Positions 1-12,483 of a stretch of DNA of 12,483 bases are shown one piece after another. Below the pieces are notes generated by a model. It was not told the DNA's origin and made no database searches. It saw only the letters and a list, made by a program, of their open reading frames with translations. Made by a program: the position numbers and the translations under genes. This DNA comes from a virus (Duplodnaviria > Heunggongvirae > Uroviricota > Caudoviricetes). The stretch lies in the IMG/VR virus record IMGVR_UViG_2636415477_000012; one strand, written 5' to 3'. Numbering within the stretch: position 1 is the stretch's first letter; each line of letters begins with the position of its first letter.

Positions 1-243
1 ATGTTCGCTTTGATTCAACGCGGTCAGATATACACGGACAGAGCTGGATACCCCGTGGTGATTACTCGCATCACTGAGCACTCAGTGTTCTTTCGACGGA
101 TGGACGGACGATCCGGGCGGGTACGCATTGGTGAGTTAAACTGCCTGTTCGAACATATTGACCACCAGGAGTACCGCAAAATTCTCGCGGACACTGAGCA
201 GGAAAAGCACCTGAAAAAATTACGGGCCATGAAAAGGAAGTAA
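1..243 (+). CDS. Small hypothetical prophage protein (80 aa); may be 5'-partial because the ORF starts at the window edge
   Basis: ORF-track entry; same strand and tight spacing with the downstream xis/int module; stop TAA at 241-243 lies 3 nt before the next ATG (247). No recognisable motif. Confidence 0.45.
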   Translation: MFALIQRGQIYTDRAGYPVVITRITEHSVFFRRMDGRSGRVRIGELNCLFEHIDHQEYRKILADTEQEKHLKKLRAMKRK

Positions 244-246
244 AGA

Positions 247-393
247 ATGAATAAAGCATTTGAACAATGGGTCCACCAGCGTTACGGCAATCGCTATGAC
301 CTGACACGAGATGTTGACGGTTTCTACTGTCGTGAAATTGTGAAACGAATGTTTGAAGTGTGGTGCCACTGCCGTGGGCTGAGTGTTGTGTGA
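247..393 (+). CDS. Small hypothetical protein (48 aa, MNKAFEQWVHQRYG...)
   Basis: Not in the ORF track (too short). I translated it by hand: ATG at 247 preceded by AAGGAAG Shine-Dalgarno, stop TGA at 391-393, fills the gap between the two flanking genes on the same strand. Confidence 0.35.
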   Translation: MNKAFEQWVHQRYGNRYDLTRDVDGFYCREIVKRMFEVWCHCRGLSVV

Positions 394-401
394 GGTAATG
401 C

Positions 402-638
402 ATGGGCAATGTGATTCAACTGGCTCCCAATGAATGGGTTTGTGAAAGCGTTCTAATCGCAATTACCGGGCTCAAACCAGGCACAATTCTTCGGGCCCGG
501 AAAGAATGCTGGATGGTTGGAAGAGAGTATATTCACGTATCACCAGACGGTAATCCAAAGCCTTCCAGTGAATGTATGTATAACAGAAAAGCAATAGATG
601 CCTGGGTCGCTTCAATGAAAAACAAACAACCTGGGTGA
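402..638 (+). CDS. xis: Excisionase-like (Xis) small DNA-binding protein
   Basis: 78-aa ORF directly upstream of the integrase on the same strand; GAGGT Shine-Dalgarno 8 nt upstream; contains a W...R...GREY(I/L)... segment reminiscent of lambda-type Xis (lambda Xis has GREYLFHESA). Assignment by position and weak motif only. Confidence 0.55.
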   Translation: MGNVIQLAPNEWVCESVLIAITGLKPGTILRARKECWMVGREYIHVSPDGNPKPSSECMYNRKAIDAWVASMKNKQPG

Positions 639-693
639 TTTAATGCCATGAAGTATGTAAGCTCGTATCGCTCTTGGGCGTCTGGAGGTATCA

Positions 694-2007
694 ATGGATA
701 AAGTCAAATATCCAACAGGCGTCGAAAACCACGGCGGCACATTACGCATCTGGTTTAATTTTAAAGGTAAACGTGTCAGGGAAAATCTTGGTGTCCCTGA
801 CACTGCCAAGAACAGGAAGATCGCCGGGGAACTGCGGACATCGGTATGTTTTGCCATCCGCACAGGAAGCTTTGATTATGCTGCACAGTTCCCTGACTCC
901 CCCAACCTTCAGGCTTTTGGGGTAAGTAAAAAAGAAATTACGGTGAAGGAACTTGAAGAAAAGTGGCTGGATCTGAAACGAATGGAAATCTCTGCAAATG
1001 CATTCAATCGCTATGAATCCGTTGCAAGAACGATGGTTTCGAAAATTGGAGGCAGTAGACTGGTGTCATCGGTAACCAAAGAGGAATTGCTGTATATCAG
1101 GAAAGATTTGCTAACCGGGTATCAGAATTCAACGAAAAACAAAGCAGCAGCAAAAGGACGGAGCGTCGTTACTGTAAATTATTACATGACGACAATCGCT
1201 GGAATGTTTCAGTTTGCTGCAGATCACGGTTACTTAGAAGCAAATCCCTTCCAGGGAATTAAGCCTCTTAAAAGAGCCAGGGCAGAGCCAGATCCGCTAA
1301 CTCGTGACGAATTTATTCGCCTGATAGATGCTTGCCGACATCAGCAGACGAAAAACCTGTGGTCATTGGCTGTGTACACAGGAATGCGTCACGGTGAACT
1401 GGTCTCCCTGGCCTGGGAAGATATCGATCTGAAGGCAGGAACAATTACCATCAGGCGCAATTATACGAAACTTGGTGAGTTCACTCTACCGAAAACTGAA
1501 GCAAGCACAAACAGGGTTGTGCACCTTATCCAGCCCGCTATCAGTGTCCTGAAAAATCAGGCTGAAATGACAAGACTGGGTAAGCAGTACAACATCAAGG
1601 TGCAACTACGTGAATATGGACGTTCAGTGAACCATGAATGTACTTTCGTGTTTAACCCTCAAGTGGTTAGAAAAAGCGAACAGGTAGGTTTTGTCTACAA
1701 AGTCGATTCTGTAGGTGACTCATGGGAAACAGCCATTAAGCGTGCAGGGATCAGGCATCGAAAGGCATACCAGTCACGACACACTTATGCGTGCTGGTCA
1801 TTATCTGCCGGAGCAAACCCAAGCTTCATTGCCAGCCAGATGGGCCATGCAAGTGCCCAGATGGTATTCAATGTATACGGAGCATGGATGACTGACAGCA
1901 ATGCAGAACAGATCGCAATGCTGAATCAGAAGCTGACAGATTATGTCCCAATGATGCCCCATAGTCACCAAAGTGACACCAGAGGCTTATTAAAATCAGT
2001 AAGTTAA
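694..2007 (+). CDS. int: Tyrosine-type site-specific integrase (lambdoid, Rac IntR-like)
   Basis: 437-aa ORF with GGAGGT Shine-Dalgarno. C-terminal tyrosine-recombinase signature: R in GMRHGEL, H-x-x-R in SRHTYAC, and Y in NVYGAW. N-terminal PTGVE...LRIWFNFKGKR resembles Rac-prophage-type integrases from memory. Confidence 0.9.
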   Translation: MDKVKYPTGVENHGGTLRIWFNFKGKRVRENLGVPDTAKNRKIAGELRTSVCFAIRTGSFDYAAQFPDSPNLQAFGVSKKEITVKELEEKWLDLKRMEISANAFNRYESVARTMVSKIGGSRLVSSVTKEELLYIRKDLLTGYQNSTKNKAAAKGRSVVTVNYYMTTIAGMFQFAADHGYLEANPFQGIKPLKRARAEPDPLTRDEFIRLIDACRHQQTKNLWSLAVYTGMRHGELVSLAWEDIDLKAGTITIRRNYTKLGEFTLPKTEASTNRVVHLIQPAISVLKNQAEMTRLGKQYNIKVQLREYGRSVNHECTFVFNPQVVRKSEQVGFVYKVDSVGDSWETAIKRAGIRHRKAYQSRHTYACWSLSAGANPSFIASQMGHASAQMVFNVYGAWMTDSNAEQIAMLNQKLTDYVPMMPHSHQSDTRGLLKSVS

Positions 2008-2018
2008 TCCTTAATACC

Positions 2019-2435
2019 CGTCATGTTAACTGTGTGGAGGGTAACACCACGCTTTATGCCCTGCCGAAACCCGAGGTTGTCCTGCGCTGGCGTGAGCAGA
2101 CCACAGATGACTTCCGCTTCTGTTTTAAGTTTCCGGCGACCATTTCGCATCAGGCAGCATTACGGCATTGCGATGATTTAGTGACTGAATTTTTGACCCG
2201 CATGTCACCGTTGGCTCCGCGCATTGGACAATACTGGCTGCAACTGCCTGCCACATTCGGCCCACGGGAGCTGCCTGCGCTTTGGCATTTTCTCGATTCT
2301 CTTCCCGGTGAATTTAATTATGGGGTGGAAGTCCGCCATCCACAGTTTTTCGCCAAAGGGGAAGAGGAACAAACGCTTAATCGCGGTTTACATCAGCGCG
2401 GCGTTAATCGGGTGATTTTTATTAGACACGTTTAA
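2019..2435 (+). pseudogene. yecE: Internal fragment of a DUF72-family (yecE-like) chromosomal gene, lacking its 5' end and with a divergent 3' end
   Basis: Translation VEGNTTLYALPKPEVVLRWREQTTDDFRFCFKFPATISH carries the DUF72 motifs (VE.N.TFY..P and FRF.FK....H). No upstream start or N-terminal region is present; after ...GVNRVI (about 2415) the frame runs into AT-rich sequence and stops at 2433-2435. Flanked by int on the left and the serine recombinase on the right. Confidence 0.55.
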
Positions 2436-2487: not shown

Positions 2488-3747
2488 ATGAAACGTGTCA
2501 TTTCTTACATCCGGTTTTCATCTGAGAAGCAATCCCGAGGTGATTCATTACGCCGACAATCTAAGATGGTTACAGATTGGCTTAAGGCTCATCCTGAGTA
2601 CTACCTTGACCAAGACTTATCTTTTCGTGATTTGGGGGTGAGTGGATTCACTGGTAAGCACTTGAAAGGTGGCTTAGGTGACTTCTTAACCGCTATCGAG
2701 AAAGGGCTTGTTAAAGCTGGTGATACGCTCTTGATAGAATCTCTTGACCGTTTGTCACGCCAGAACGTAGACCGAGCAAGTGAGCTATTACGAAACATTC
2801 TTCGCTCTGGTGTAGATGTAGTCACCTTGTCCGATGGTGAACATTACACACGAGAATCTCTTAAAGACCCGTTAGCTCTGATTAAAAGCATTCTGATAAT
2901 GCAGCGGTCGCATGAGGAGAGTTTGAGGAAGTCTGAGCGTATACAAGGTGCATGGAACCGTAAAAAAGAACTCATCTCTGAAGGTATCAAGATTTCTAAA
3001 CGTTGTCCTGCATGGCTTAAGCTTAATGATGACCGTAAAAGCTTCTCTGTGATACCTGAGAAAGTAGAGACTGTGAAGAGGTGCTTTCAGCTACGGTTAG
3101 AGGGCAAATCTATCTGGGAGATTGTCAGGACTCTTAATGATGAAGGTCACCAGACACTTAACCAGTACAAAGCAGGTAAGTTTGGTCAAACCTCAGTGCA
3201 AGACCTTCTGAAGAATCGCTCTGTAATTGGTTACTTCACACCTAAAGGCTGTGAAGAGATTTCAGGTTATTACCCTGCAATTATAGATGAAACAATATTC
3301 TACAAAGTCCAGCAACTATCATATTCTCGTTATGGAAGAAAGCCTGCTTCAGATAAACCATTGAGCGTGAATCTTTTCAAAGGGGTTATCCGTTGTTCTG
3401 AATGTGGTCATGCTCTGATTATCACAGGCTTTAGCGATACAAGAAACGGGATTTATCGTTGTCCTCTTCGTAATGAAAACCGTTGTAGTGCTAAAGGACT
3501 TTCACGTAAGCAAACCGATGGTACATTGCTTACTCTGCTATCTCGTCTTGACCGATTTGATAGCGATACGACGAATATCATAGATATGTTGAGGCTACAC
3601 CGTGAACACATCTCAAGCAATATTGAAAAGCTGGTACAGCTATCACTTGAAATTGAAGATTTGTCAGCTGCGTATTTTCATGAAAGGAGATCACTCAATA
3701 ACTTCCATCGAGATCGGGTAATAACATTTGAACAGATCGCTGAATAA
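2488..3747 (+). CDS. Large serine recombinase (serine integrase), N-terminal ~397 aa native; the last ~22 codons and the stop lie inside the IS21-family left end
   Basis: Resolvase-type catalytic N-terminus VISYIRFSSEKQSRGDSLRRQ (Ser nucleophile), recombinase domain, Cys-rich zinc-ribbon CSECGH...YRCPLRNENRC, then the start of a coiled coil. The ORF continues from 3681 to 3747 through the GATC/AATAAC repeats that form the IS end. Confidence 0.85.
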   Translation: MKRVISYIRFSSEKQSRGDSLRRQSKMVTDWLKAHPEYYLDQDLSFRDLGVSGFTGKHLKGGLGDFLTAIEKGLVKAGDTLLIESLDRLSRQNVDRASELLRNILRSGVDVVTLSDGEHYTRESLKDPLALIKSILIMQRSHEESLRKSERIQGAWNRKKELISEGIKISKRCPAWLKLNDDRKSFSVIPEKVETVKRCFQLRLEGKSIWEIVRTLNDEGHQTLNQYKAGKFGQTSVQDLLKNRSVIGYFTPKGCEEISGYYPAIIDETIFYKVQQLSYSRYGRKPASDKPLSVNLFKGVIRCSECGHALIITGFSDTRNGIYRCPLRNENRCSAKGLSRKQTDGTLLTLLSRLDRFDSDTTNIIDMLRLHREHISSNIEKLVQLSLEIEDLSAAYFHERRSLNNFHRDRVITFEQIAE

Positions 3748-3780
3748 CATCGATGGAGATCACTTTTGACTCATTTTGTT
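3689..3780. repeat. Four phased 23-bp subterminal repeats at the IS left end, each starting with GATC
   Basis: GATC at 3689, 3712, 3735 and 3758 (exact 23-bp spacing). AATAAC at 3697, 3720 and 3743, i.e. in the first three units (same spacing). Unit 1 versus unit 3 match at 18/23 positions. Confidence 0.6.
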
Positions 3781-3861
3781 ATTCAGTGATCTCCATCAAT
3801 GTTATTGGAACTTCACAGGTGTGTTGATCTGTATCTTTTGCCATTCCGGTAAAGGATACCT

Positions 3862-5403
3862 ATGCCAACAGTTCCAATTTCTATGAGAAAACTTAAAGAA
3901 ATTCTTAGGCTTAAATACGGTGTTGGACTCAGCCATCGACAAATTGGTCGTAGTCTTGCAATCTCCCCTTCCGTTGTATCCAGATATGCTAATCGGGCGG
4001 CTCAACTTGGCATAAAGCAGTGGCCCTTACCTACAGGATGGGATGATACAAAACTAAAACATGCGTTCCTTCAGACCCAGGTTAAGATGAAGAAGCACTC
4101 TCTGCCTGACTGGGCTACAGTACACCGGGAACTGCGTAATAAATGCGTGACGCTGCAGCTACTCTGGGAAGAATACTGTGAGCGTAATCCAGGCGGTTTT
4201 TACAGCTATAACCATTACTGCCGGATGTACCGTGAATGGCTCAAAACCACTTCACCATCAATGCGTCAGGTACATAAAGCTGGCGAAAAACTTTTCGTTG
4301 ATTACTGTGGACCTACCGTTGGCGTTACCGACCCTGAGACCGGAGAAATAAGAACTGCTCAGGTCATCGTAGCTGTTCTCGGGGCATCAAGTTACACATG
4401 GGCAGAGGCCACCTGGTCTCAGCAGCTTGAAGACTGGGTGATGAGTCATGTTCGCTGCTTCCAGTGGTTGGGTGGCGTTCCTGAACTTGTTGTTCCGGAC
4501 AATCTGAAAAGCGCCACATCCAGGGCATGTAAGTATGATCCTGACGTTAACCCTACCTACCAGCAGATGCTTGAGCATTATAATGTCGCAGTTTTGCCTG
4601 CGCGGCCACGTAAACCGAAAGATAAAGCCAAAGCTGAAGTTGGCGTTCAGGTTGTTGAACGCTGGATCATGGCCCGAATCAGGCATGAGATCTTCTACAG
4701 CCTTGCATCGCTTAATCAGCGCATTCGGGAGTTGCTGGAAAGACTGAATAACAAAATAATGCAGAAGTTGGGTTATTCACGTGCAGAACTCTTCATCCAG
4801 CTTGATAAACCCGCACTGAAGCCTCTTCCTGAAGCCAGTTACAGTTACACCCTGGTGAAGAAAGTCAGAGTTCATGCCGATTACCACGTGGAAATCGACA
4901 AACATTACTACTCGGTTCCATGTTCGCTGTTAGGCCAGCAACTGGAAGCATGGATCTCCGGAGAACTGGTAAGACTCTTCAATCAGGGGCAGGAGGTTGC
5001 TGTGCACCCGCGCAAGCGTACTTATGGCTACAGTACCCGCAACGAGCACATGCCTGAAGCTCATCGACAGCATGCCACCTGGACGCCAGAGCGTCTTCTG
5101 GAATGGGCGGGGCACATAGGCAGTGAAACTCATAGTTATGTGCTTCATATACTGAACTCTCGTCCACATCCGGAACAAAGCTATCGCTTCTGCCTTGGAC
5201 TCCTGAACCTTCATAAAAAATACAGTAAAGCCAGACTTAATGCAGCATGTGCAAGAGCTCTGAAAACAAAGGTATGGCGTCTGTCAGGTATTAAATCGAT
5301 CCTGGAAAAAGGTCTGGATAAACAACCTGTTCAGGATCCAAAACCAGATCTGTTATCCACGATGGAACACGAAAACGTACGCGGCAGTGAGTATTACCAC
5401 TGA
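3862..5403 (+). CDS. istA: IS21-family transposase IstA
   Basis: 513-aa ORF with N-terminal helix-turn-helix region (LSHRQIGRSLAISPSVVSRY) and DDE-type core segments (LFVDYCG ... VVPDNLKSA ... KAKAE); immediately followed by istB. Confidence 0.9.
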   Translation: MPTVPISMRKLKEILRLKYGVGLSHRQIGRSLAISPSVVSRYANRAAQLGIKQWPLPTGWDDTKLKHAFLQTQVKMKKHSLPDWATVHRELRNKCVTLQLLWEEYCERNPGGFYSYNHYCRMYREWLKTTSPSMRQVHKAGEKLFVDYCGPTVGVTDPETGEIRTAQVIVAVLGASSYTWAEATWSQQLEDWVMSHVRCFQWLGGVPELVVPDNLKSATSRACKYDPDVNPTYQQMLEHYNVAVLPARPRKPKDKAKAEVGVQVVERWIMARIRHEIFYSLASLNQRIRELLERLNNKIMQKLGYSRAELFIQLDKPALKPLPEASYSYTLVKKVRVHADYHVEIDKHYYSVPCSLLGQQLEAWISGELVRLFNQGQEVAVHPRKRTYGYSTRNEHMPEAHRQHATWTPERLLEWAGHIGSETHSYVLHILNSRPHPEQSYRFCLGLLNLHKKYSKARLNAACARALKTKVWRLSGIKSILEKGLDKQPVQDPKPDLLSTMEHENVRGSEYYH

Positions 5404-5414
5404 TACGGGATCCA

Positions 5415-6164
5415 ATGATGAATCATCTTTACGAACAACTGACCGCACTTAAACTCACCGGCTTCCGTGATGCGCTTAAAAAGCAACTTGCTCAGCCGGG
5501 CACATACCAGGAGCTGGGCTTCGAAGAACGCCTGTCATTACTGACAGCAGAAGAACTAACCTGCCGTGAAAACAGGAAGGCAGAGCGTCTGATCAAACAT
5601 GCACGGTTCAGACTTAATGCTGAGTTATCAAAGCTGGATTATCGTAACAATAGAGGGCTGGACAGGGCCCTCATCCGTTCACTCAGTCAGGGAAACTGGT
5701 TAACCCTGAAACAAAATATTTTACTGACCGGGGCCACCGGCAGCGGTAAAACGTTCCTGGCATGTGCACTTGGTCATAATGCCTGCCGACAGGGATACAA
5801 GGTCTACTATTATCGCCTTAAAGCGCTGATGGAACAGTGCTATCAGGGGCATGCTGATGGAAGATACAGCAAACTTTTGACCAGGCTGAATAATAGCGAT
5901 CTGCTGCTTCTGGATGACTGGGGGCTGGAACCTCTCTCATCAGAACAGCGTAGCGACCTGCTGGAAATAGTGGATCTGATGTACCAACGAGGCTCAATCA
6001 TCGTAGTGAGCCAGTTGCCGGTGGAAAACTGGTACAAAATGATCGGAGACTCCACACATGCGGATGCCATCCTAGATCGACTGGTTCATGGCAGTATCAA
6101 GATCGAACTTAAAGGAGAATCAATGCGGAAAATACAATCTCCGTTGACCGAAGGAGATCAGTGA
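5415..6164 (+). CDS. istB: IS21-family ATP-binding helper protein IstB
   Basis: 249-aa ORF with Walker A GATGSGKT and Walker B LLLLDDWG; starts 12 bp after the istA stop. Confidence 0.9.
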   Translation: MMNHLYEQLTALKLTGFRDALKKQLAQPGTYQELGFEERLSLLTAEELTCRENRKAERLIKHARFRLNAELSKLDYRNNRGLDRALIRSLSQGNWLTLKQNILLTGATGSGKTFLACALGHNACRQGYKVYYYRLKALMEQCYQGHADGRYSKLLTRLNNSDLLLLDDWGLEPLSSEQRSDLLEIVDLMYQRGSIIVVSQLPVENWYKMIGDSTHADAILDRLVHGSIKIELKGESMRKIQSPLTEGDQ

Positions 6165-6200
6165 AGGTAATTTAAAAACGGTTCTGTGAAAGTGACACGA

Positions 6201-6237
6201 ACCGATCTCCATCGATGTTACTCACCGATCTCCTTCA
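6201..6237. repeat. IS right terminal inverted repeat with two phased GATC units
   Basis: GATC at 6204 and 6227 (23-bp spacing); the reverse complement matches the left-end units, including the perfect 17-mer gatctccatcgatgtta at 6204-6220. Confidence 0.6.
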
Positions 6238-6243
6238 CGGTAA

Positions 6244-6597
6244 TACGCATCAGCTATTACCAGCAAGCTAAAACAACTAAAGAATGAGCTATCACAGGTT
6301 GATGCGGATATCGAGAAGGAGACACAACGCCTTAAATCTATTGATGTGGGTTGTTTGTCTGATTGTGACTTGACTACAAAGGCGGGAAGGATTGAAGCAC
6401 AACTGATAATCAAAAGTGCTGTTAAAGAGGTCGTTTTAAATACTGCTAAACGTCGCTGTAAAGTGACTTTTCACAATGGTAGAGCAATCACCTTACCAAT
6501 AACAGAAAACCCCTCAGAGGACGTTACAGAGGCTATACAGTCGCTTTCTGAGGTCACTGAGAGGGGTTTAATAGATGTTGATGAGGTTATCATATAG
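6244..6597 (+). pseudogene. Probable C-terminal remnant of the interrupted large serine recombinase (coiled-coil region); has no ATG start
   Basis: Open frame from just after the TAA at 6241-6243 to the TAG at 6595-6597 translates to YASAITSKLKQLKNELSQVDADIEKETQRLKSID...; same strand and same reading-frame phase (position mod 3) as the recombinase; heptad-like charged sequence. The ORF track lists only a GTG-initiated part (6346-6597). Confidence 0.45.
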
Positions 6598-6611
6598 TTG
6601 AGATTCTATCG

Positions 6612-7385
6612 TCAGTATCGCTTGTTAGGATTAACAGAATACTTCTTCAAAGTACTACCTGTACCAGCATTATTAAGCACCTTTGAAGCTTGCTCATTAG
6701 CGGCATCTGAGAAGGTGCTTTTTCCGTTCTTAACTCTGACATTTTTACCACAATTGATACGGGCTTGAAGTTGCTCATTAGTAAGTTCACTCGTAGAGCG
6801 ATTATATAGCTCCTGACACATCAACATACCGTTACCTAAGCTTGTCGTAGTGTTCCCTGTATTCTTTTTACTGGTAGCACCACCATCACTTGTGGTAGAA
6901 GTCCTTCCGGTCGCAGCCGAGATATCAGTCTGACCCACAATAGCTTTAAAGTTAATTTCCTGAAAAGTTAATTGGATTCTAAGACCATTGGCAATACCAA
7001 CATCTTTAGAGGCTTTAAAGTTTGTAATAATTGAGTCGTCAATCTTAATACCATCTTTACAGACAACTGAGATAATTTGCTTCTGGTCACGCCAGTTTTC
7101 AAGAGTGTCTATGAAGTTTTCCACCAGCTTATTATCTCTTGAGATAAGGATACTACCGGATTCACCAACCACAACCACACCACTGATTGAAATAGTTCTT
7201 GGTGAACGCATTACATTATCTGTTACAGTCTGCCCTGATTGCATATTTTGAGTGGTAACCATCATAGGGCTGTCAAATTCCATGTTTTCAGTTGCTGATA
7301 GTGACAAGAAATTATCTGGTTGGCCTTGTAGATGGAAGTAAACGCCATCTTTACCACTGTAACGAAGCTGATTAGTGTAAATCAT
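6612..7385 (-). CDS. Hypothetical protein (257 aa) directly downstream of the tape-measure-domain gene; possibly tail-associated
   Basis: ORF-track entry 6612-7406 begins at a TTG. I prefer the in-frame ATG at 7385 (MIYTNQLRY...), preceded by AAGGAG 6 nt upstream. Ser/Thr/Gly-rich C-terminal half. No recognisable catalytic motif. Confidence 0.6.
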
Positions 7386-7460
7386 TAAATTCTCCTTTGA
7401 TTTCAAAGGCTTAGTGTATTTTAATCATTTTTAACCAAGCCTTTGATATATAAGTGTTTT

Positions 7461-7535
7461 CTCTGCTAAGCGTGTTGTACGTAAATTCTATTTTTCAGTG
7501 TGGGTATTAGCTTTACAGATTTCACGTAGCACACG
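7461..7535. repeat. Copy 1 of a ~75-bp conserved intergenic direct repeat, upstream of the 257-aa gene
   Basis: About 90% identical to 9691-9766; the conserved core cgtaaattctatttttcagtgtgg(g/a)tattagctttacagatttca(c/t)gtagcacac is read directly from the sequence. Sits 14 bp after the stop of the 709-aa gene and about 75 bp before the ATG at 7385. Confidence 0.85.
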
Positions 7536-7548
7536 GATATATAAGAAA

Positions 7549-9678
7549 TCATTCTTCCTCTGGATAGCTTGAACTTAAGAGCATATCCTGCGTGAACTGG
7601 TCATTAGCCGATTGACTGAAATTAAAGAAAGCTGGTTCATCCGGTCTAACAGTTGCTTCACCAGTGATATTAACTGACAAGGGCTTCTTAGCTTCTACTG
7701 TTAAAGCATCAACCTTGCGTGATAGTTCACTAATAGTCATTGCAAGTTGAGCATTGCTATTAACCATGTCACCTGTGATAGCTGGTGTAGTTGATTGTGT
7801 GTTATTAACAAGGTTACTCATTGGCTCTTGGAAGTTAGCAATTTTATTAGCTGCACCATTAAACCAGTCAGCGATAGAACTACCAATCTTAGCCCATCCA
7901 TCATTAATTTGGTTTGGTGTAGAATCGCCTTTGTATTCAGGGTTGAAGTTTGTCTCTGTTCCAATACCTGATTGATGTAAGTTCGGATTCTTAGCTGCTT
8001 CAGGGTTTAAATTATCAAGAGCAAAGTTTACCAACTCAGCATAAAGGACAACTCTACCGACTTTACTTAGCGCACCACCTGAAGAACCAGCCTTGCCAGC
8101 TTTAGCTTTATTAACAGCGTCACCGAATGAAGTAACAGCGTTTGCAAGGTTTAACAAGCCTCCTGCTACATTTGCAGCCTTTTGAGCAGTAACAGCTACG
8201 GCAAGCATCTTCAAACCATCAATTAACCCATCAGATAAACCATCAACAATTTTTTTCTGAGTGTCATTTAGTGAACGGTAAGCTAATGTCACCTCATCGA
8301 AGAACGCTCTTACCCTGTAACTGATATCAGTCAGGCTATCCACACCACTTGACATAGAAGTCATGAGACTACCAAGAGATTCACCAAGACTCTTACCGCT
8401 TCCACCTAAACTGTTTAAAAGCGTTGTTAGGCTTCTTGTAAAATCTTGCAGACCATTTTCAGAACCTCTAAAAATATCCGTTAATGAGTTATTCCAGGTA
8501 TTCTTTAAGTTCCCTAACATTGTCTGCGTAGAGTCCTGAATAGCTTTCCAGCCACCTCTGGAATTAATCTGTGAACCAAGTTCTTTAGCAAATTTAGGAA
8601 GTGCATCAGAGGCTTTAACATCACCATTTTTCATCTTATCGAAAAGCTGTTTTTCAGTCAGACCTAAAGCCTTTGCAAATGCCTGAGTAGCACCCGGTAA
8701 AGCTTCAGATAGTTGCCCCTTCAACTCCTCAGCCATCACCTGACCCTTAGAAGCCATCTGTGACACTGCGGTTAATGCTCTTTGAATCTGCTCATCTGAA
8801 CGACCCATTAAACGAGCATAACCTGTAAGGTTTTTAAATAACTCTTCTGACCCTTCAAGACCCATCGTAGTCGTTGCACTTGCACCAAATGAAGCAAATT
8901 GCGCTTGTGTTTCGGTTGTGTCCATACCAGTAATTTTAGTTAAATCTTGAATGAACTTTTTAACCTGTGTACTTTGGTCACCGAATACGAAATCAATACT
9001 TCTTTCCGATGATGCACGCTGTAAACCAACTTCCATTACTCGCTGATAAGCGGATAGTACAGCCTGAAAGCTGATAAATGCACCTGCTGTTTTCACTGCT
9101 ACTGAACTTAAATTATCAAGAGAACTAGCTGCTTTGTCACTATTAATGCTGGTGGATGTATGACCTCTGGCTTTAGCAATTGCTTCTCGTACACTTGAAT
9201 TTAGTTTAGCAAGGGCTTCATTAAATTTTGAATTATCCATTGACCCAGCTTTAGCAGATAGCCCGTAAAACTGACTCTTAATGTATTTCTCGACAATTGG
9301 GTTAAGACCTTTTAGCTTAGACATATTCGCTGAATAAGCTGCTGTGATTGCTCTGTTGCCGCTAATTCGTGGCTGTCTTGGCTGTCTAAGTGGCTTTAAA
9401 GTATCCTCAATTTCCGTTTTAATCTTAAACGCTCTAGTGTTTTTAAGACGCTGCTCAATCTTGTCAAAGGTCTTATTAAACTTCCTTTCAAGTTGCCCTA
9501 AAGAACTTGTCAGATTGCTGTCAAGTTGCTTGGTATCGACCTTAAACGCTCTATTCAAATTACGTTCAATTCTTTGTGCTGACTGCAAAGCTGCCTTTTC
9601 AACTCTTTGCAAGCCCTTAATAACGTTCTCGCTGAAGCCTAGCTCAACGATAAAACTATCAACTGTGAATTTGCTCAT
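7549..9678 (-). CDS. Tape-measure-domain protein (709 aa), phage tail tape-measure-like
   Basis: ATG at 9678 with AAGAGGTGA Shine-Dalgarno and an in-frame stop immediately upstream. Segment ELKGQLSEALPGATQAFAKALGLTEKQLFDKMKNGDVKASDALPKFAKELG matches the pattern of phage tape-measure domains as I recall it. Long helical, Gly/Ser/Ala-rich regions (GSGKSLGESLGSL, AGKAGSSGGALSKVG). Confidence 0.7.
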   Translation of the reverse strand: MSKFTVDSFIVELGFSENVIKGLQRVEKAALQSAQRIERNLNRAFKVDTKQLDSNLTSSLGQLERKFNKTFDKIEQRLKNTRAFKIKTEIEDTLKPLRQPRQPRISGNRAITAAYSANMSKLKGLNPIVEKYIKSQFYGLSAKAGSMDNSKFNEALAKLNSSVREAIAKARGHTSTSINSDKAASSLDNLSSVAVKTAGAFISFQAVLSAYQRVMEVGLQRASSERSIDFVFGDQSTQVKKFIQDLTKITGMDTTETQAQFASFGASATTTMGLEGSEELFKNLTGYARLMGRSDEQIQRALTAVSQMASKGQVMAEELKGQLSEALPGATQAFAKALGLTEKQLFDKMKNGDVKASDALPKFAKELGSQINSRGGWKAIQDSTQTMLGNLKNTWNNSLTDIFRGSENGLQDFTRSLTTLLNSLGGSGKSLGESLGSLMTSMSSGVDSLTDISYRVRAFFDEVTLAYRSLNDTQKKIVDGLSDGLIDGLKMLAVAVTAQKAANVAGGLLNLANAVTSFGDAVNKAKAGKAGSSGGALSKVGRVVLYAELVNFALDNLNPEAAKNPNLHQSGIGTETNFNPEYKGDSTPNQINDGWAKIGSSIADWFNGAANKIANFQEPMSNLVNNTQSTTPAITGDMVNSNAQLAMTISELSRKVDALTVEAKKPLSVNITGEATVRPDEPAFFNFSQSANDQFTQDMLLSSSYPEEE

Positions 9679-9690
9679 TCATATTTTTCA

Positions 9691-9766
9691 CCTCTTTAAG
9701 CGTGAGCTACGTAAATTCTATTTTTCAGTGTGGATATTAGCTTTACAGATTTCATGTAGCACACAT
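9691..9766. repeat. Copy 2 of the ~75-bp conserved intergenic direct repeat, immediately upstream of the tape-measure-domain gene
   Basis: Same orientation as copy 1. Its promoter-distal end supplies the Shine-Dalgarno (cttaaagagg on the - strand) 12 bp before the ATG at 9678. Confidence 0.85.
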
Positions 9767-9768
9767 AC

Positions 9769-9809
9769 AAAAAAAGGAGAAACTACCGATGTCACTCGAT
9801 AATCTCTCC
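9769..9809 (-). terminator. Candidate intrinsic terminator after the 71-aa gene
   Basis: On the - strand: stem GGAGAGA / TTTCTCC (one mismatch; + strand arms 9776-9782 and 9803-9809), ~20-nt loop, followed by seven T (A-run 9769-9775 on +). The loop is large, so it is weak. Confidence 0.35.
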
Positions 9810-9859
9810 CCGTACTATAGATTCGATAGAACCTATCTCATACACCCAACCAATCTTTT

Positions 9860-10075
9860 TTAATGCCTGACAAGATAATGTAGTTCCGTTTCACCTATGA
9901 TTTGAGCATCAGAAGGGATACGGTCAATACACCATTTTGGAATCTTGCGTGTTTTTGGTTTGCGTGAGGTGATAATTTGATGTTTGGTTTTAATTCTTAA
10001 GGCTGGCTTAGTTTGTAACTTTAAGTTTTCACAAACAGACTTAATAGTTTCATAGCGTTCTGTTAAATCAATCAT
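9860..10075 (-). CDS. Hypothetical small basic protein (71 aa)
   Basis: ORF-track entry; ATG at 10075 with GAGGTGA Shine-Dalgarno 4 nt upstream; Lys/Arg-rich; 22 bp after the stop of the upstream gene. Confidence 0.5.
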   Translation of the reverse strand: MIDLTERYETIKSVCENLKLQTKPALRIKTKHQIITSRKPKTRKIPKWCIDRIPSDAQIIGETELHYLVRH

Positions 10076-10097
10076 TCATCACCTCACATATGCATAA

Positions 10098-10802
10098 TTA
10101 AACAGCCTTGCTAAATTCTCGTGGAACACTCAGAAAATCATTGAAGCTGATAATCTGTGCCAACTCTTGACGGTACTCCTTAGCCAGCGCTTGATGGTCA
10201 CTAATCAGCTTAGCCAGTCTTGATTTCAGCAAATTAATCTCATTTTCTCTTGCTTTCATCAGTTTCTCTTTGGCAATTTCTTCAAGCTCAGCTTGTGATT
10301 TATCAGCAACAATTAGAGACAGTCGATGTGGTGCTCTGACAGCTCTTTCGGTGCGAACAACTCTTTGACCTTCTGGTAAATCTGCAATCACTTTACCAAT
10401 CTCTACAGGGTCATACCCCCAACCGTCACGGTCTAGTCGAGAGAAATAAGCATAAGGATTGGTTTGAAGCTCCATCAAAATAGCCATTTCGTCAATTTCG
10501 TCTTCAAGCTTGGACTGAATTTTCTCGTAAACACTTCTCATTGCTTCTTGAGAGTCTTTAATAGCTTGGAAATATCGGCGTTGTAGCTTCAACTTCAAAT
10601 CAAGCTCACATTCCTCATTCATCGAAAAATCAATTTCAACTCTTGGAATCTCGAGTGGTTCTGGTGGAATATATGGACCTTTATTTACTTCGTGTGATTC
10701 CCGCCAAGCTCTATCAAAAGATTCACGCAAAGTTAATTCGTGAATATCAAGTGCACTTGGTTTGTTTTCGATAATCATTTCATGTTCATCACGGATAGAC
10801 AT
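10098..10802 (-). CDS. Hypothetical acidic coiled-coil protein (234 aa)
   Basis: ORF-track entry; ATG at 10802 with GAGGAAAA Shine-Dalgarno; Glu/Asp-rich helical sequence; no recognisable motif. Confidence 0.65.
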   Translation of the reverse strand: MSIRDEHEMIIENKPSALDIHELTLRESFDRAWRESHEVNKGPYIPPEPLEIPRVEIDFSMNEECELDLKLKLQRRYFQAIKDSQEAMRSVYEKIQSKLEDEIDEMAILMELQTNPYAYFSRLDRDGWGYDPVEIGKVIADLPEGQRVVRTERAVRAPHRLSLIVADKSQAELEEIAKEKLMKARENEINLLKSRLAKLISDHQALAKEYRQELAQIISFNDFLSVPREFSKAV

Positions 10803-10919
10803 TATTATTTTTCCTCTTCTAAGATAATTTATGTTTCAGTTTTTAAAAAGCACACCTGACAGCCTACGAACTTAGAAGAGACTTAAAAGGCGTTTGCCAA
10901 GTATGCTTTTTAAAAGCTG

Positions 10920-10964
10920 AAAAAAGCCCTAAACATAGGTTCATCCTTATCTGTAAAGGGCTTT
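10920..10964 (-). terminator. Hairpin followed by a T-run (terminator-like or structured RNA)
   Basis: Stem AAAGCCCT (10923-10930) / AGGGCTTT (10957-10964), 26-nt loop; on the - strand the 3' arm is followed by TTT then CAGC (run of six T counting the stem). Confidence 0.3.
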
Positions 10965-11024
10965 GAAGGTTTGCTTATAACGTTAACGAAGTTTCAGGAA
11001 AAACTTTCTTTAAAAGCTCTGTTT

Positions 11025-11062
11025 AAAAACTCTTAAAGAAAGCCCTAACTCATGATTAGGGC
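11025..11062 (-). terminator. Candidate intrinsic terminator downstream of the HNH/HTH/107-aa operon
   Basis: Stem GCCCTAA (11042-11048) / TTAGGGC (11056-11062), 7-nt loop; on the - strand it is followed by TTTCTTTAAGAGTTTTT. Confidence 0.4.
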
Positions 11063-11286
11063 AAAGCTGTAAGGGTTCAATAATGAATGATTAAGCACTT
11101 TTTGATATATAGCCTATCTAGTGGGCTAAATAGGCCATGTAGCGAAAAGCATTGCACCTTTCAGAATAACTATCCCTAGATGTAGATGGAATTGTTGAAA
11201 GAAATAAGAGAGAATTGCTCTCCCATACTTAAAATTATGACATATTTAAGGTTATTTGTCAACAGCTTTTTAACAGATTGGTAACA

Positions 11287-11364
11287 TTAATTCTTATTTA
11301 CCGTGTTACCTACCCAGCAACCAACAAATAAACCCAAAGCTGTCCAAGCAATTATTAAGCCCAT
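11287..11364 (-). CDS. Possible 25-aa hydrophobic peptide (MGLIIAWTALGLFVGCWVGNTVNKN)
   Basis: I translated it by hand. Its ATG overlaps the TAA stop of the upstream 107-aa gene (TAATG). Single predicted transmembrane-like stretch. No other support. Confidence 0.25.
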   Translation of the reverse strand: MGLIIAWTALGLFVGCWVGNTVNKN

Positions 11365-11687
11365 TAATGCACCACCTTCGAATCCGTAACCAAAATATTG
11401 TCAGCGTACAAAATTGCTATAGCTGCCTTGAGATATTTTTCAGGGCTAACGCTGTATTTGTTCGTTTGCTCGATAACCAATCTTTTCATGTTGCTGTCTT
11501 TAATTGGTAGCATCATTCGAGGCTCGTTAAACTCCACCGAGTGAATAAAGTCAGAGATGCTTTCCGCATTATCAGCCATTAACTCTAACAACTTATCAAA
11601 GTCAATGCTAACACCTACATCAGTGAAAGCCTGAATCATCATAGCGGTGTCGTTATCAACGAAAATTTGCATTGGGTGATTATTCAT
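11364..11687 (-). CDS. Hypothetical acidic protein (107 aa)
   Basis: ORF-track entry; ATG at 11687 with AGAGGAA Shine-Dalgarno about 8 nt upstream. Confidence 0.6.
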   Translation of the reverse strand: MNNHPMQIFVDNDTAMMIQAFTDVGVSIDFDKLLELMADNAESISDFIHSVEFNEPRMMLPIKDSNMKRLVIEQTNKYSVSPEKYLKAAIAILYADNILVTDSKVVH

Positions 11688-11765
11688 TTTTAAATTCCTC
11701 TAAAACACATCTTAAATCTGCCAAAATAGCCATTCTGAGGCCAGTAACCATGCGGGTTACAGAGG

Positions 11766-11812
11766 GAGTGAGACACCTTAGTAATAGGGTAGCTCATCTT
11801 TGAGTCTCACTC
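11766..11812. promoter_or_regulatory. 9-bp inverted repeat in the 137-bp intergenic region (possible operator or RNA structure)
   Basis: GAGTGAGAC (11766-11774) and its exact reverse complement GTCTCACTC (11804-11812), 29-bp spacer; no T-run follows, so not scored as a terminator. Confidence 0.3.
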
Positions 11813-11824
11813 ATTCTCACAGGC

Positions 11825-12211
11825 TTACACAGACGCTTTAATCTTGTAGTATTGACTACGTGATAAGCCGTATTTCTCAGAAATATAACTTTGTGATTGT
11901 CCTTTGGTGATTGCATCAATGATTAAATCTTTATTGTATCTGTTGCCATTGGTTTTGTGCTTGTCACCACTTTTAATAGAGTTGAAATTCTCAATTAATT
12001 TAATGGCGTCTTTAAGGTCGTCTTCGTAAGCATAATCAAAACCCCTGATAAACTCGAAATCACCATTATCTTTTTGTGCTTCAGCCCAGATATCAAATCT
12101 TGAGGCTAATTGCTGGTGGGTAAACTTGGGTTTATTGGTTTGTGTTACGTCCCTCCAGATTCTACCGTCAAATCTTACCAAATGGTCACGATGTTTATAA
12201 AAGTCATACAT
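11825..12211 (-). CDS. Hypothetical protein (128 aa from the ATG at 12211) with a C-terminal helix-turn-helix
   Basis: The ORF-track entry starts at a TTG (12244). I prefer the ATG at 12209-12211, which overlaps the upstream TAA (TAATG) and has GGAGG 5 nt upstream. C-terminal DLIIDAITKGQSQSYISEKYGLSRSQYYKIK resembles resolvase/transposase-type helix-turn-helix. Confidence 0.6.
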   Translation of the reverse strand: MYDFYKHRDHLVRFDGRIWRDVTQTNKPKFTHQQLASRFDIWAEAQKDNGDFEFIRGFDYAYEDDLKDAIKLIENFNSIKSGDKHKTNGNRYNKDLIIDAITKGQSQSYISEKYGLSRSQYYKIKASV

Positions 12212-12483
12212 TAAACCTCCTGTAGTAAGTTGTTTGGGTGGCAATTTCTTTTATTACCATCCTTGAAGATAATCTTTTTAGTTGCCTGAACTTCATGATG
12301 CAAAAACCAGATGACATACTTCAGATAATAATCACGAGTGCCATAACGAATCATTGGATTACCGTAAGCATCATCTCTTGTCTTAACCTCTCCGCCATCA
12401 ATCCATTCAAGCATTCCTGTTTCGTAATTAATCATGAAGTAAGTTGCAAAGAACCGTTTAATATCATCTCGCCATTGCTTCAT
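12211..12483 (-). CDS. HNH-endonuclease-like protein (HNH_3-type pattern); possibly 5'-partial at the window edge
   Basis: YGTRDYYLKYVIWFLHHE...IIFKDGNKRNCHPNNLL resembles the H...DGNK.NN..NL pattern of phage HNH endonucleases, but the usual His before DGN is replaced (FKD), so it may be degenerate. ORF starts at an ATG at the last base of the window. Confidence 0.45.
   Translation of the reverse strand: MKQWRDDIKRFFATYFMINYETGMLEWIDGGEVKTRDDAYGNPMIRYGTRDYYLKYVIWFLHHEVQATKKIIFKDGNKRNCHPNNLLQEV

Follow-up and report, generated by a model that had tools for sequence, protein, structure and literature searches.

A duplicated palindromic cassette, tentatively read as a promoter, precedes two tail genes of an Escherichia coli island and is related to a palindrome upstream of phage P1 cre

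We have analysed a 12,483-nt stretch of Escherichia coli-like DNA (IMG/VR record IMGVR_UViG_2636415477_000012, classified under Caudoviricetes; hereafter the window) in which a palindromic unit occurs twice, in the same orientation, each time 5′ of a minus-strand gene of a genomic island: one copy precedes a Dit-like (tube-initiator) gene and the other a tape-measure protein (TMP) gene, both related to tail genes of the virulent phage Felix O1. Our reading, plausible though still tentative, is that the unit is a portable promoter/leader cassette of a sigma-70 type that relies on a −10 element alone, carries operator-like palindromic arms, and would drive these two helper-derived tail genes. 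The cassette shares its arms with palindromes that precede the cre genes of phage P1 and related phages, and with these it forms a family not remarked upon before.

A repeat search returned one outstanding direct repeat in the window, 7467–7534 against 9697–9764 (68 nt, 93% identical); over the discrete unit (7466–7534 against 9696–9764) identity is 63/69, or 91%. A 25-nt core has two exact occurrences in the window and none in 200 shuffles. An earlier note, made from the letters of the window, had described about 90% identity over ∼75 bp; the duplication is real, but the 75-nt spans chosen there are only 85% identical (64/75). Its descriptions of the shared orientation, of the placement upstream of the minus-strand 257-aa and tape-measure genes, of the TAGAAT hexamers lacking an acceptable −35 at 16–18 bp, and of the spacing to the start codons all hold, as do its inverted arms, which we find to continue inward as an imperfect ∼24-bp stem. 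The anatomy was worked out from 17 island loci, taken from E. coli genomes and IMG/VR, and ∼100 metagenome contigs, with the island copies aligned gap-free in a 72-nt frame (alignment A1). In each unit a 55-bp palindrome, whose ∼15-bp arms (consensus GCTACGTGAAATCTG and CAGATTTCACGTAGC) enclose a variable centre, is followed by a tail, CACGCTTAA, that leads into the ribosome-binding site. Read on the gene strand, the left arm (GTG)TGCTACGTGA(A/T) is followed by a ∼39-nt centre in several interchangeable half-types, a TAnnnT hexamer, and TT(T/C)ACGTAGCTCACGCTTAA or its variant ACGTACAACACGCTTAA. The 3′ ends differ by gene, being AGAGGTG-N6-ATG for TMP and CAGAG plus a leader for the Dit-like gene.

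The hexamer carries much of the argument for a promoter. Among 59 distinct 72-nt variants representing 156 island copies, T48, A49 and T53 are invariant (59/59), and positions 50–52 vary; the hexamers are TATTTT (31), TAGAAT (19), TAGATT (5), TAATTT (3) and TAGTTT (1), all TAnnnT at a fixed position. Their would-be stem partners at columns 22, 21 and 17 pair in just 29, 46 and 54 of the 59, respectively. The T at −12, the A at −11 and the T at −7 are the most important positions of the sigma-70 −10 element. Copy 2 begins 9 nt past a strong intrinsic terminator and lies 18 nt before the TMP start codon, so a new transcription start is needed there. Moreover, in Felix O1 the TMP gene and ORF68, the homologue of the Dit-like gene, abut with stop overlapping start and no spacer; the ∼150-nt repeat-bearing spacer is therefore an addition specific to the island, and of a regulatory kind. 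We suggest that the cassette supplies a sigma-70-type promoter with only a −10 element (TAnnnT), and that RNA polymerase would start ∼7 nt downstream, within the invariant ACGTA, so that the two tail genes would share a short 5′ leader; the predicted leaders would be ∼30 nt for TMP and ∼95 nt for the Dit-like gene, the latter holding the 7395–7454 hairpin. One arm would then lie at about −53 to −39 and the other would overlap −10/+1, placed like operator or activator sites; it is arm sequence, not arm pairing, that is conserved. A protein would presumably bind the arms, and expression could be either weak and constitutive or switched on by a helper phage.

Relatives were found by arm-pattern scans, and 26 sequences of the whole family were aligned (alignment A2). 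The family pattern, which the window copies fit, is GCTACGTRAA and TYACGTAGC arms around a variable centre, and the arm-to-arm length is exactly 55 nt in every member without an insertion, even though the centres are unrelated. In P1 (NC_005856, our L160) the palindrome GCTACGTAAAATCTG...CAGATTTCGCGTAGC occupies 118–172, flanked by cra-cre and by loxP, which has a LexA box, and lies just upstream of the Shine-Dalgarno sequence AGAGGTGAAAAATG, a string shared between the copy 2 region and P1 cra. When copy 2 with its Shine-Dalgarno region is compared with the cre-upstream regions of P1 and of JK004, 0/500 shuffles reach either score. The P1 record annotates a sigma-70 promoter, P3cre (called pR1 in the 1986 publication on cre; GenBank X03453), whose −10, TAAAAT, is inside the left arm; the 55-bp palindrome is not annotated there. 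Other P1-like contigs with the palindrome are L156 (Cre 99% identical), JK004, L146 and L147 (79%), and L158. In three more (L148, L154 and L155) it has a lox-like palindrome on one side and a Cre homologue (PDB 1nzb, E = 3e-71; 45% and 36% identity) on the other, in L029 and L107 it precedes another tyrosine recombinase, and in L152 an unknown 487-aa gene. We know of no discussion of the P1 palindrome in the literature. The cre-context members have the element 3′ of lox-like sites and directly 5′ of the Shine-Dalgarno sequence; the island copies do not share that setting, the window having neither lox nor cre. Invariant across A2 are CTAC, CGTA, A15, A48, T52 and T53, that is, the arms, and this constraint points to DNA-level recognition of a specific sequence. 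That the closest relatives occur at P1-type cre genes argues equally for a weak constitutive and for a regulated promoter. A second arm-pattern scan (GCTACGTAAA...) yielded only 48-nt palindromes in coding regions, which we judged unrelated. The features of the window are collected in Table 1.

Table 1. Features in and around the two cassette copies (window coordinates)
Feature	Position	Strand	Remarks
Dit-like gene, 257 aa	6612..7385, ATG at 7385	−	homologue of Felix O1 ORF68 (identity 72% aa, 80% nt)
Second hairpin, 21-nt arms	7395..7454	−	in leader between copy 1 and Dit-like Shine-Dalgarno; missing where islands have the short leader variant
Cassette copy 1	7466..7534	−	69 nt, upstream of Dit-like/tube-initiator gene; minus strand reads GTGTGCTACGTGAAATC...TAGAATTTACGTACAACACGCTTAG
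Copy 1 palindrome core, 55 bp	7476..7530	−	left arm GCTACGTGAAATCTG; right arm TAGAATTTACGTACA, outer 2–3 bases degenerate
−10-like hexamer TAGAAT, copy 1	7485..7490 (plus-strand ATTCTA)	−	predicted start near 7478
TMP gene, 709 aa	7549..9678, ATG at 9678	−	N-terminal 47 aa and extreme C-terminus match Felix O1 TMP
Shine-Dalgarno region of TMP gene, AGAGGTGAAAAAT	9679..9695	−	identical string precedes cra in phage P1
Cassette copy 2	9695..9764	−	70 nt, upstream of tape-measure gene; limits set by islands without exactly that unit (..GTAT/GAGGTG..)
−10-like hexamer TAGAAT, copy 2	9715..9720 (plus-strand ATTCTA)	−	predicted start near 9708
Intrinsic terminator ending the upstream 71-aa gene	9774..9811	−	16-pair stem + T7, 9 nt before copy 2; kept in all islands

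Several findings weigh against a promoter as the function of the unit. There is no TTGACA-like −35 at 16–18 bp (the best candidates are AAGCTA, GAACAG and AAGTTA), neither copy has a TG extended −10 or an UP-like tract, and a scan for sigma-70 consensus promoters calls neither site; lacking both −35 and TG motif, any promoter here would be weak alone or would require a factor, and low basal activity is predicted. The TMP copy is missing from 6 of the 17 islands compared, in which the TMP gene is still intact, so copy 2 is dispensable; likewise, the copy-2 region is covered in 236 of 468 island-bearing E. coli genomes, roughly half lacking the TMP copy. In one relative (L086) the palindrome is flanked by convergent chromosomal genes, a setting that calls for no promoter. 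The hexamer of most cre-context relatives starts with C or A (CAGATT, CAGAAT, AAGAAT, AACTAT; mostly one of the first two), which makes the T at −12 a feature of the island, and the annotated −10 of P1 lies in the opposite arm from the island TAnnnT. Thus, what the family conserves is the palindrome and its arm sequence, with no single promoter position. The earlier note had proposed an activator-dependent promoter of the phage-late kind. The promoter part gains from the invariant TAnnnT and from the position of the TMP copy after a strong terminator; the late-promoter part does not, for a regular-expression search of both upstream regions found neither the P2/P4-type TGT-N12-ACA (about −55) nor the T4 late −10 TATAAATA, and motif and BLAST scans across the entire Felix O1 genome showed no intergenic region with an arm, box or tail motif. 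We therefore reject a promoter borrowed from Felix O1, a phage whose temporal control of transcription is stated in the literature to be unknown. Comparison by eye with consensus sequences gave no convincing match to alternative sigma-factor motifs, host transcription-factor sites, attC or oriT.

The same palindrome might instead act as RNA. As a leader hairpin transcribed from upstream it would serve RNase III-type processing, stability or translational control, as in the lambda N leader and the T7 intercistronic sites, and the earlier note had likewise suggested a conserved RNA leader or processing site; we think this unlikely. The minus-strand RNA does fold better than shuffled sequences (copy 1, z = −3.2; copy 2, z = −1.75), the predicted structure being a long, imperfect hairpin, and a T/C polymorphism at column 55 preserves a G-U or G-C pair on the sense strand. 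The placement of the cre-context element, between lox-like sites and the Shine-Dalgarno sequence, and the longer, cleaner stems of the L086 and JK004 versions also favour a hairpin. Covariation, however, is absent: among 19 island variants in A1, 9/17 pairs are lost with no compensating change, a result matched by 37/500 shuffles, and across the family in A2 the result is matched by 247/500. Compensatory changes that maintain the helix show no excess over shuffles, with many uncompensated breaks. The pairs that stay constant among the 19 variants are the 7–8 central ones, uninformative because they never vary, and a consensus fold retains only 7 invariant pairs. A generic stem would not need its arm sequence conserved across very different hosts, the terminator before copy 2 would leave little read-through RNA containing that copy, and P1-type members have an A-C mismatch on the sense strand. 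At E ≤ 10, Rfam 15 matches nothing at either copy, and five relatives give only spurious miRNA-hairpin matches; no tRNA or tmRNA genes were found in the window. The cassette is also not itself an intrinsic terminator, since no T run follows either copy and the terminator is a separate hairpin (9811–9774). We favour a promoter cassette over an RNA hairpin because TAnnnT is invariant while its stem partners vary, the stem does not covary, and Rfam offers no match. A translated version of the leader idea is very improbable: a 19-codon frame (GTG...TAA) ending one base before the TMP Shine-Dalgarno sequence could encode a leader peptide or a coupling device, and it is open in 20 of 21 distinct variants, with a 27-nt insertion (below) in frame. 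We rejected it, as it has no Shine-Dalgarno sequence and its codon positions are equally variable (9.2, 8.0, 8.9); in addition, the conserved ATACCCAC box changes frame between types, and one variant is frameshifted.

Distribution bears on whether the unit is maintained for its own sake. The element is found in 375 of 5426 complete E. coli genomes, at 457 places, none on plasmids, with 1–4 per genome, and every E. coli copy examined sits at the same positions in one island family. E. coli O145 RM9154-C1, an island-bearing strain, matches window 9640–9840 (copy 2 and the start of TMP) at 100% identity. The Dit-like-gene copy is present in every island compared. The earlier note had proposed checking whether the repeat recurs upstream of late genes in phage and prophage genomes; a blastn search with the 91-mer gave no match in 50,697 phage records. 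For the TMP copy, exact empty sites exist in two flanking contexts (slashes mark junctions), TTTTTTGTAT/GAGGTG in L021 (GTAT/GAGGTG) and ..CTAT/GAGGTG in L016 and L020, to be compared with filled sites of the form GTAT/GTGTGCTAC...CACGCTTAAA/GAGGTG; in L001, L018 and L023 the region is altered by a different deletion. Because the empty sites lack exactly 68–70 nt, we regard the unit as a discrete cassette, movable and dispensable. It is retained while its flanks change, standing before TMP alleles that are 47% identical in their N-termini and before the Dit-like gene with two different leaders. It could thus be a selfish or recombination-propagated palindromic cassette, MITE-like (miniature inverted-repeat transposable element) or a PeSL-like linker, that promotes exchange of TMP cassettes and has no required regulatory role, a view compatible with a promoter cassette and, taken alone, doubtful. 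The clean presence or absence in two contexts fits it, as does the shuffling of centre halves among copies and islands (e.g. L019 and E type). So do the direct repeats that flank TMP, the most mosaic gene of the island, a 27-nt nested palindrome that occurs in both TMP copies and third copies, and the relatives in unrelated contexts (P1-like cre operons, convergent chromosomal genes, the 487-aa gene). Yet we found no target-site duplication at filled or empty junctions and no associated transposase, the copies are not scattered, the wholly different loops between contexts speak against recent transposition, and the invariant TAnnnT and fixed 55-nt spacing indicate selection on function. The scattered REP (repetitive extragenic palindromic) or MITE family that the earlier note had named as a refutation is not what E. 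coli shows: its copies are not dispersed irrespective of genes. However, the unit, with its terminal inverted repeats and presence/absence polymorphism (L016, L020, L021), is discrete and recurs in unrelated contexts. Improbable, more so than the selfish cassette, is a pair of DNA operators with no promoter of its own, in which a dimeric or tetrameric regulator on two arms 40 bp apart would control read-through or terminator efficiency. That would suit the conservation of arm sequence rather than pairing and the constant 55-nt length despite unrelated centres, but the islands, the P1-like phages and the other carriers have no evident regulator gene in common, phages of differing Cre/lox specificity have identical arms, and the TAnnnT would be left unexplained in its invariance where the left partner has changed.

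Some islands carry further forms of the cassette. A 27-nt insertion with a perfect palindrome, GGATAAGAATTATCC, directly follows the left arm in L005 (∼9080–9110), L017, L065 and L106; its occurrence in two copy types suggests either that the copies have exchanged sequence by gene conversion or that it is a nested mini-insertion. A third copy lies close to the right end of L106 (∼9830–9930), L062, L065 and L085, directly 3′ of the terminator of a small serine recombinase gene and pointing outward to the attachment site, with TAACTT at the −10 position; once the island was excised and circularised, this copy would point towards the recombinase end. In the third copy of L062 the outermost arm pair has changed from G-C to C-G, a compensatory change. 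An insertion sequence (IS; ends TGAACCGCCCCGGG...) lies inside the −10-like hexamer of the Dit-gene copy (TAG/AAT) in L003 (8331 and 13360; Shigella flexneri) and in L009, splitting the cassette with an apparent 3-bp duplication. Islands with a different TMP allele (L002 1761–1817; L005, L007, L016) have an 18-codon hydrophobic open reading frame (MLELLIFIATHGNLLIFI) between the TMP stop codon and the cassette.

The island, ∼11–12 kb when intact, is inserted in yecE or between tonB and yciI and is present in 488 of the 5426 complete E. coli genomes; examples are the window from 2488 to 12483 (running past the window end), L001 10689–22277, L004, L005 and L006. Its minus-strand operon encodes the Dit-like protein, TMP, proteins of 71, 234, 107 and 139 aa (the last with a helix-turn-helix), and an HNH protein. 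The middle of the island TMP has diverged, to ∼34% identity with Felix O1 TMP. ORF68 directly follows TMP in Felix O1, matching the tube-initiator position in Felixounavirus Bas63, where gp18 is the tube initiator of the baseplate hub and TMP is numbered 17. With a serine recombinase, TMP and a hub protein, and no capsid or packaging genes, the island looks like a PLE-like satellite, or a tail-assembly decoy, of virulent Felix O1-type phages, going by gene content; we found no literature description of a Felix O1 satellite or of this island family. The large serine recombinase gene (2488–3747 and 6346–6597) is split in the window by an IS21-family element at 3668–6249. That element (2582 bp, with 513-aa IstA, 249-aa IstB and multiple terminal repeats) matches a segment of Escherichia phages PhiR12_1/2/4 at 100% identity, and one island-bearing E. 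coli genome has ISEc12-family istA/istB annotated in the matching region. Window positions 1–2038 are the int/xis end of a phiP27-like prophage (94–99% identity; attL near 2036) and 2034–2435 a yecE fragment; this prophage and the island, separated by a few hundred bases, share yecE as their insertion site, so that two different mobile elements stand in tandem there. The 560-nt gap upstream of the 234-aa gene (window 10803–11262) has a near-consensus sigma-70 promoter, TTGACA-17-CATAAT with TG (11262–11234, minus strand), two terminator-like hairpins, and a long inverted repeat (10834–10861 / 10895–10922, 28-nt arms) with a spurious Rfam miRNA match; it may be the main control region of the island or a small RNA. 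In L001, a 2.6-kb stretch that has no annotated genes includes a ∼95-bp tandem duplication (19206–19374) and may be an origin or iteron region.

If the unit is a promoter cassette, it marks how the island expresses its tail-nucleating and tail-measuring proteins independently of its other genes, and offers a direct way of following when the island, as a putative E. coli satellite of virulent Felix O1-like phages, begins to hijack tails. A bolder extension, which we offer as speculation and think rather unlikely in full, is a portable switch: the promoter cassette, its arms read by a conserved host or phage factor, would have been recruited from P1-like Cre/lox modules into a PLE-like E. coli satellite, and would time TMP and the tube initiator so that Felix O1-like helper tails are rebuilt for the satellite. 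The comparison also draws attention to a strongly conserved but unannotated palindrome within the much-used cre regulatory region of P1 and in other Cre/lox modules, and gives a further instance of unrelated mobile elements reusing a regulatory cassette.

Compared with the P1 cra-cre region, the island cassette has the same 55-bp palindrome in the same position upstream of a Shine-Dalgarno sequence. In P1 an annotated sigma-70 −10 lies within the palindrome, in the left arm, and uses an upstream −35 with Dam sites, whereas the island left arm reads TGAAAT or ATGAAA at that place and TAnnnT adjoins the right arm, with no −35, lox or cre. The activator-dependent late promoters of P2/P4, Mu and T4 similarly have a −10 without a usable −35, precede morphogenetic genes, and show upstream dyad symmetry; unlike them, the cassette has neither TGT-N12-ACA at −55 nor TATAAATA, and its dyad brackets the −10 instead of lying upstream. 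The PeSLs (promoter-early stem-loops) of T4-type phages (PMC2839356, PMC4122927) are likewise short composite motifs, terminator or stem-loop plus promoter, repeated before consecutive genes. They border variable gene cassettes as well, and they fall at recombination boundaries. PeSLs differ in having standard early promoters and dozens of copies per genome in hyperplastic regions (PMC2839356, PMC4122927), in contrast to the 2–3 copies per island, the missing −35 and the long palindrome enclosing the −10 seen here. Layout and mosaicism of the PeSL type fit the cassette, and recombination may occur at its repeats.

With MITE and REP repeats the cassette shares terminal inverted repeats, small size and presence/absence polymorphism, but it has no target-site duplication, genome dispersal or REP consensus, and its position relative to gene starts is fixed. 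At the level of the whole island, the closest parallel is with the PLEs of Vibrio cholerae, which parasitise phage ICP1 and assemble chimeric tails with a TMP and a baseplate-hub protein that they themselves encode (PMC12987554). Either kind of island is small and has a large serine recombinase, and parasitism on a virulent myovirus, known for PLEs, is suggested for the island by its gene content. PLE-like elements described so far come from Vibrio, whereas this island has E. coli as host, a Felix O1-like phage as presumed helper, and proteins unrelated to those of PLEs.

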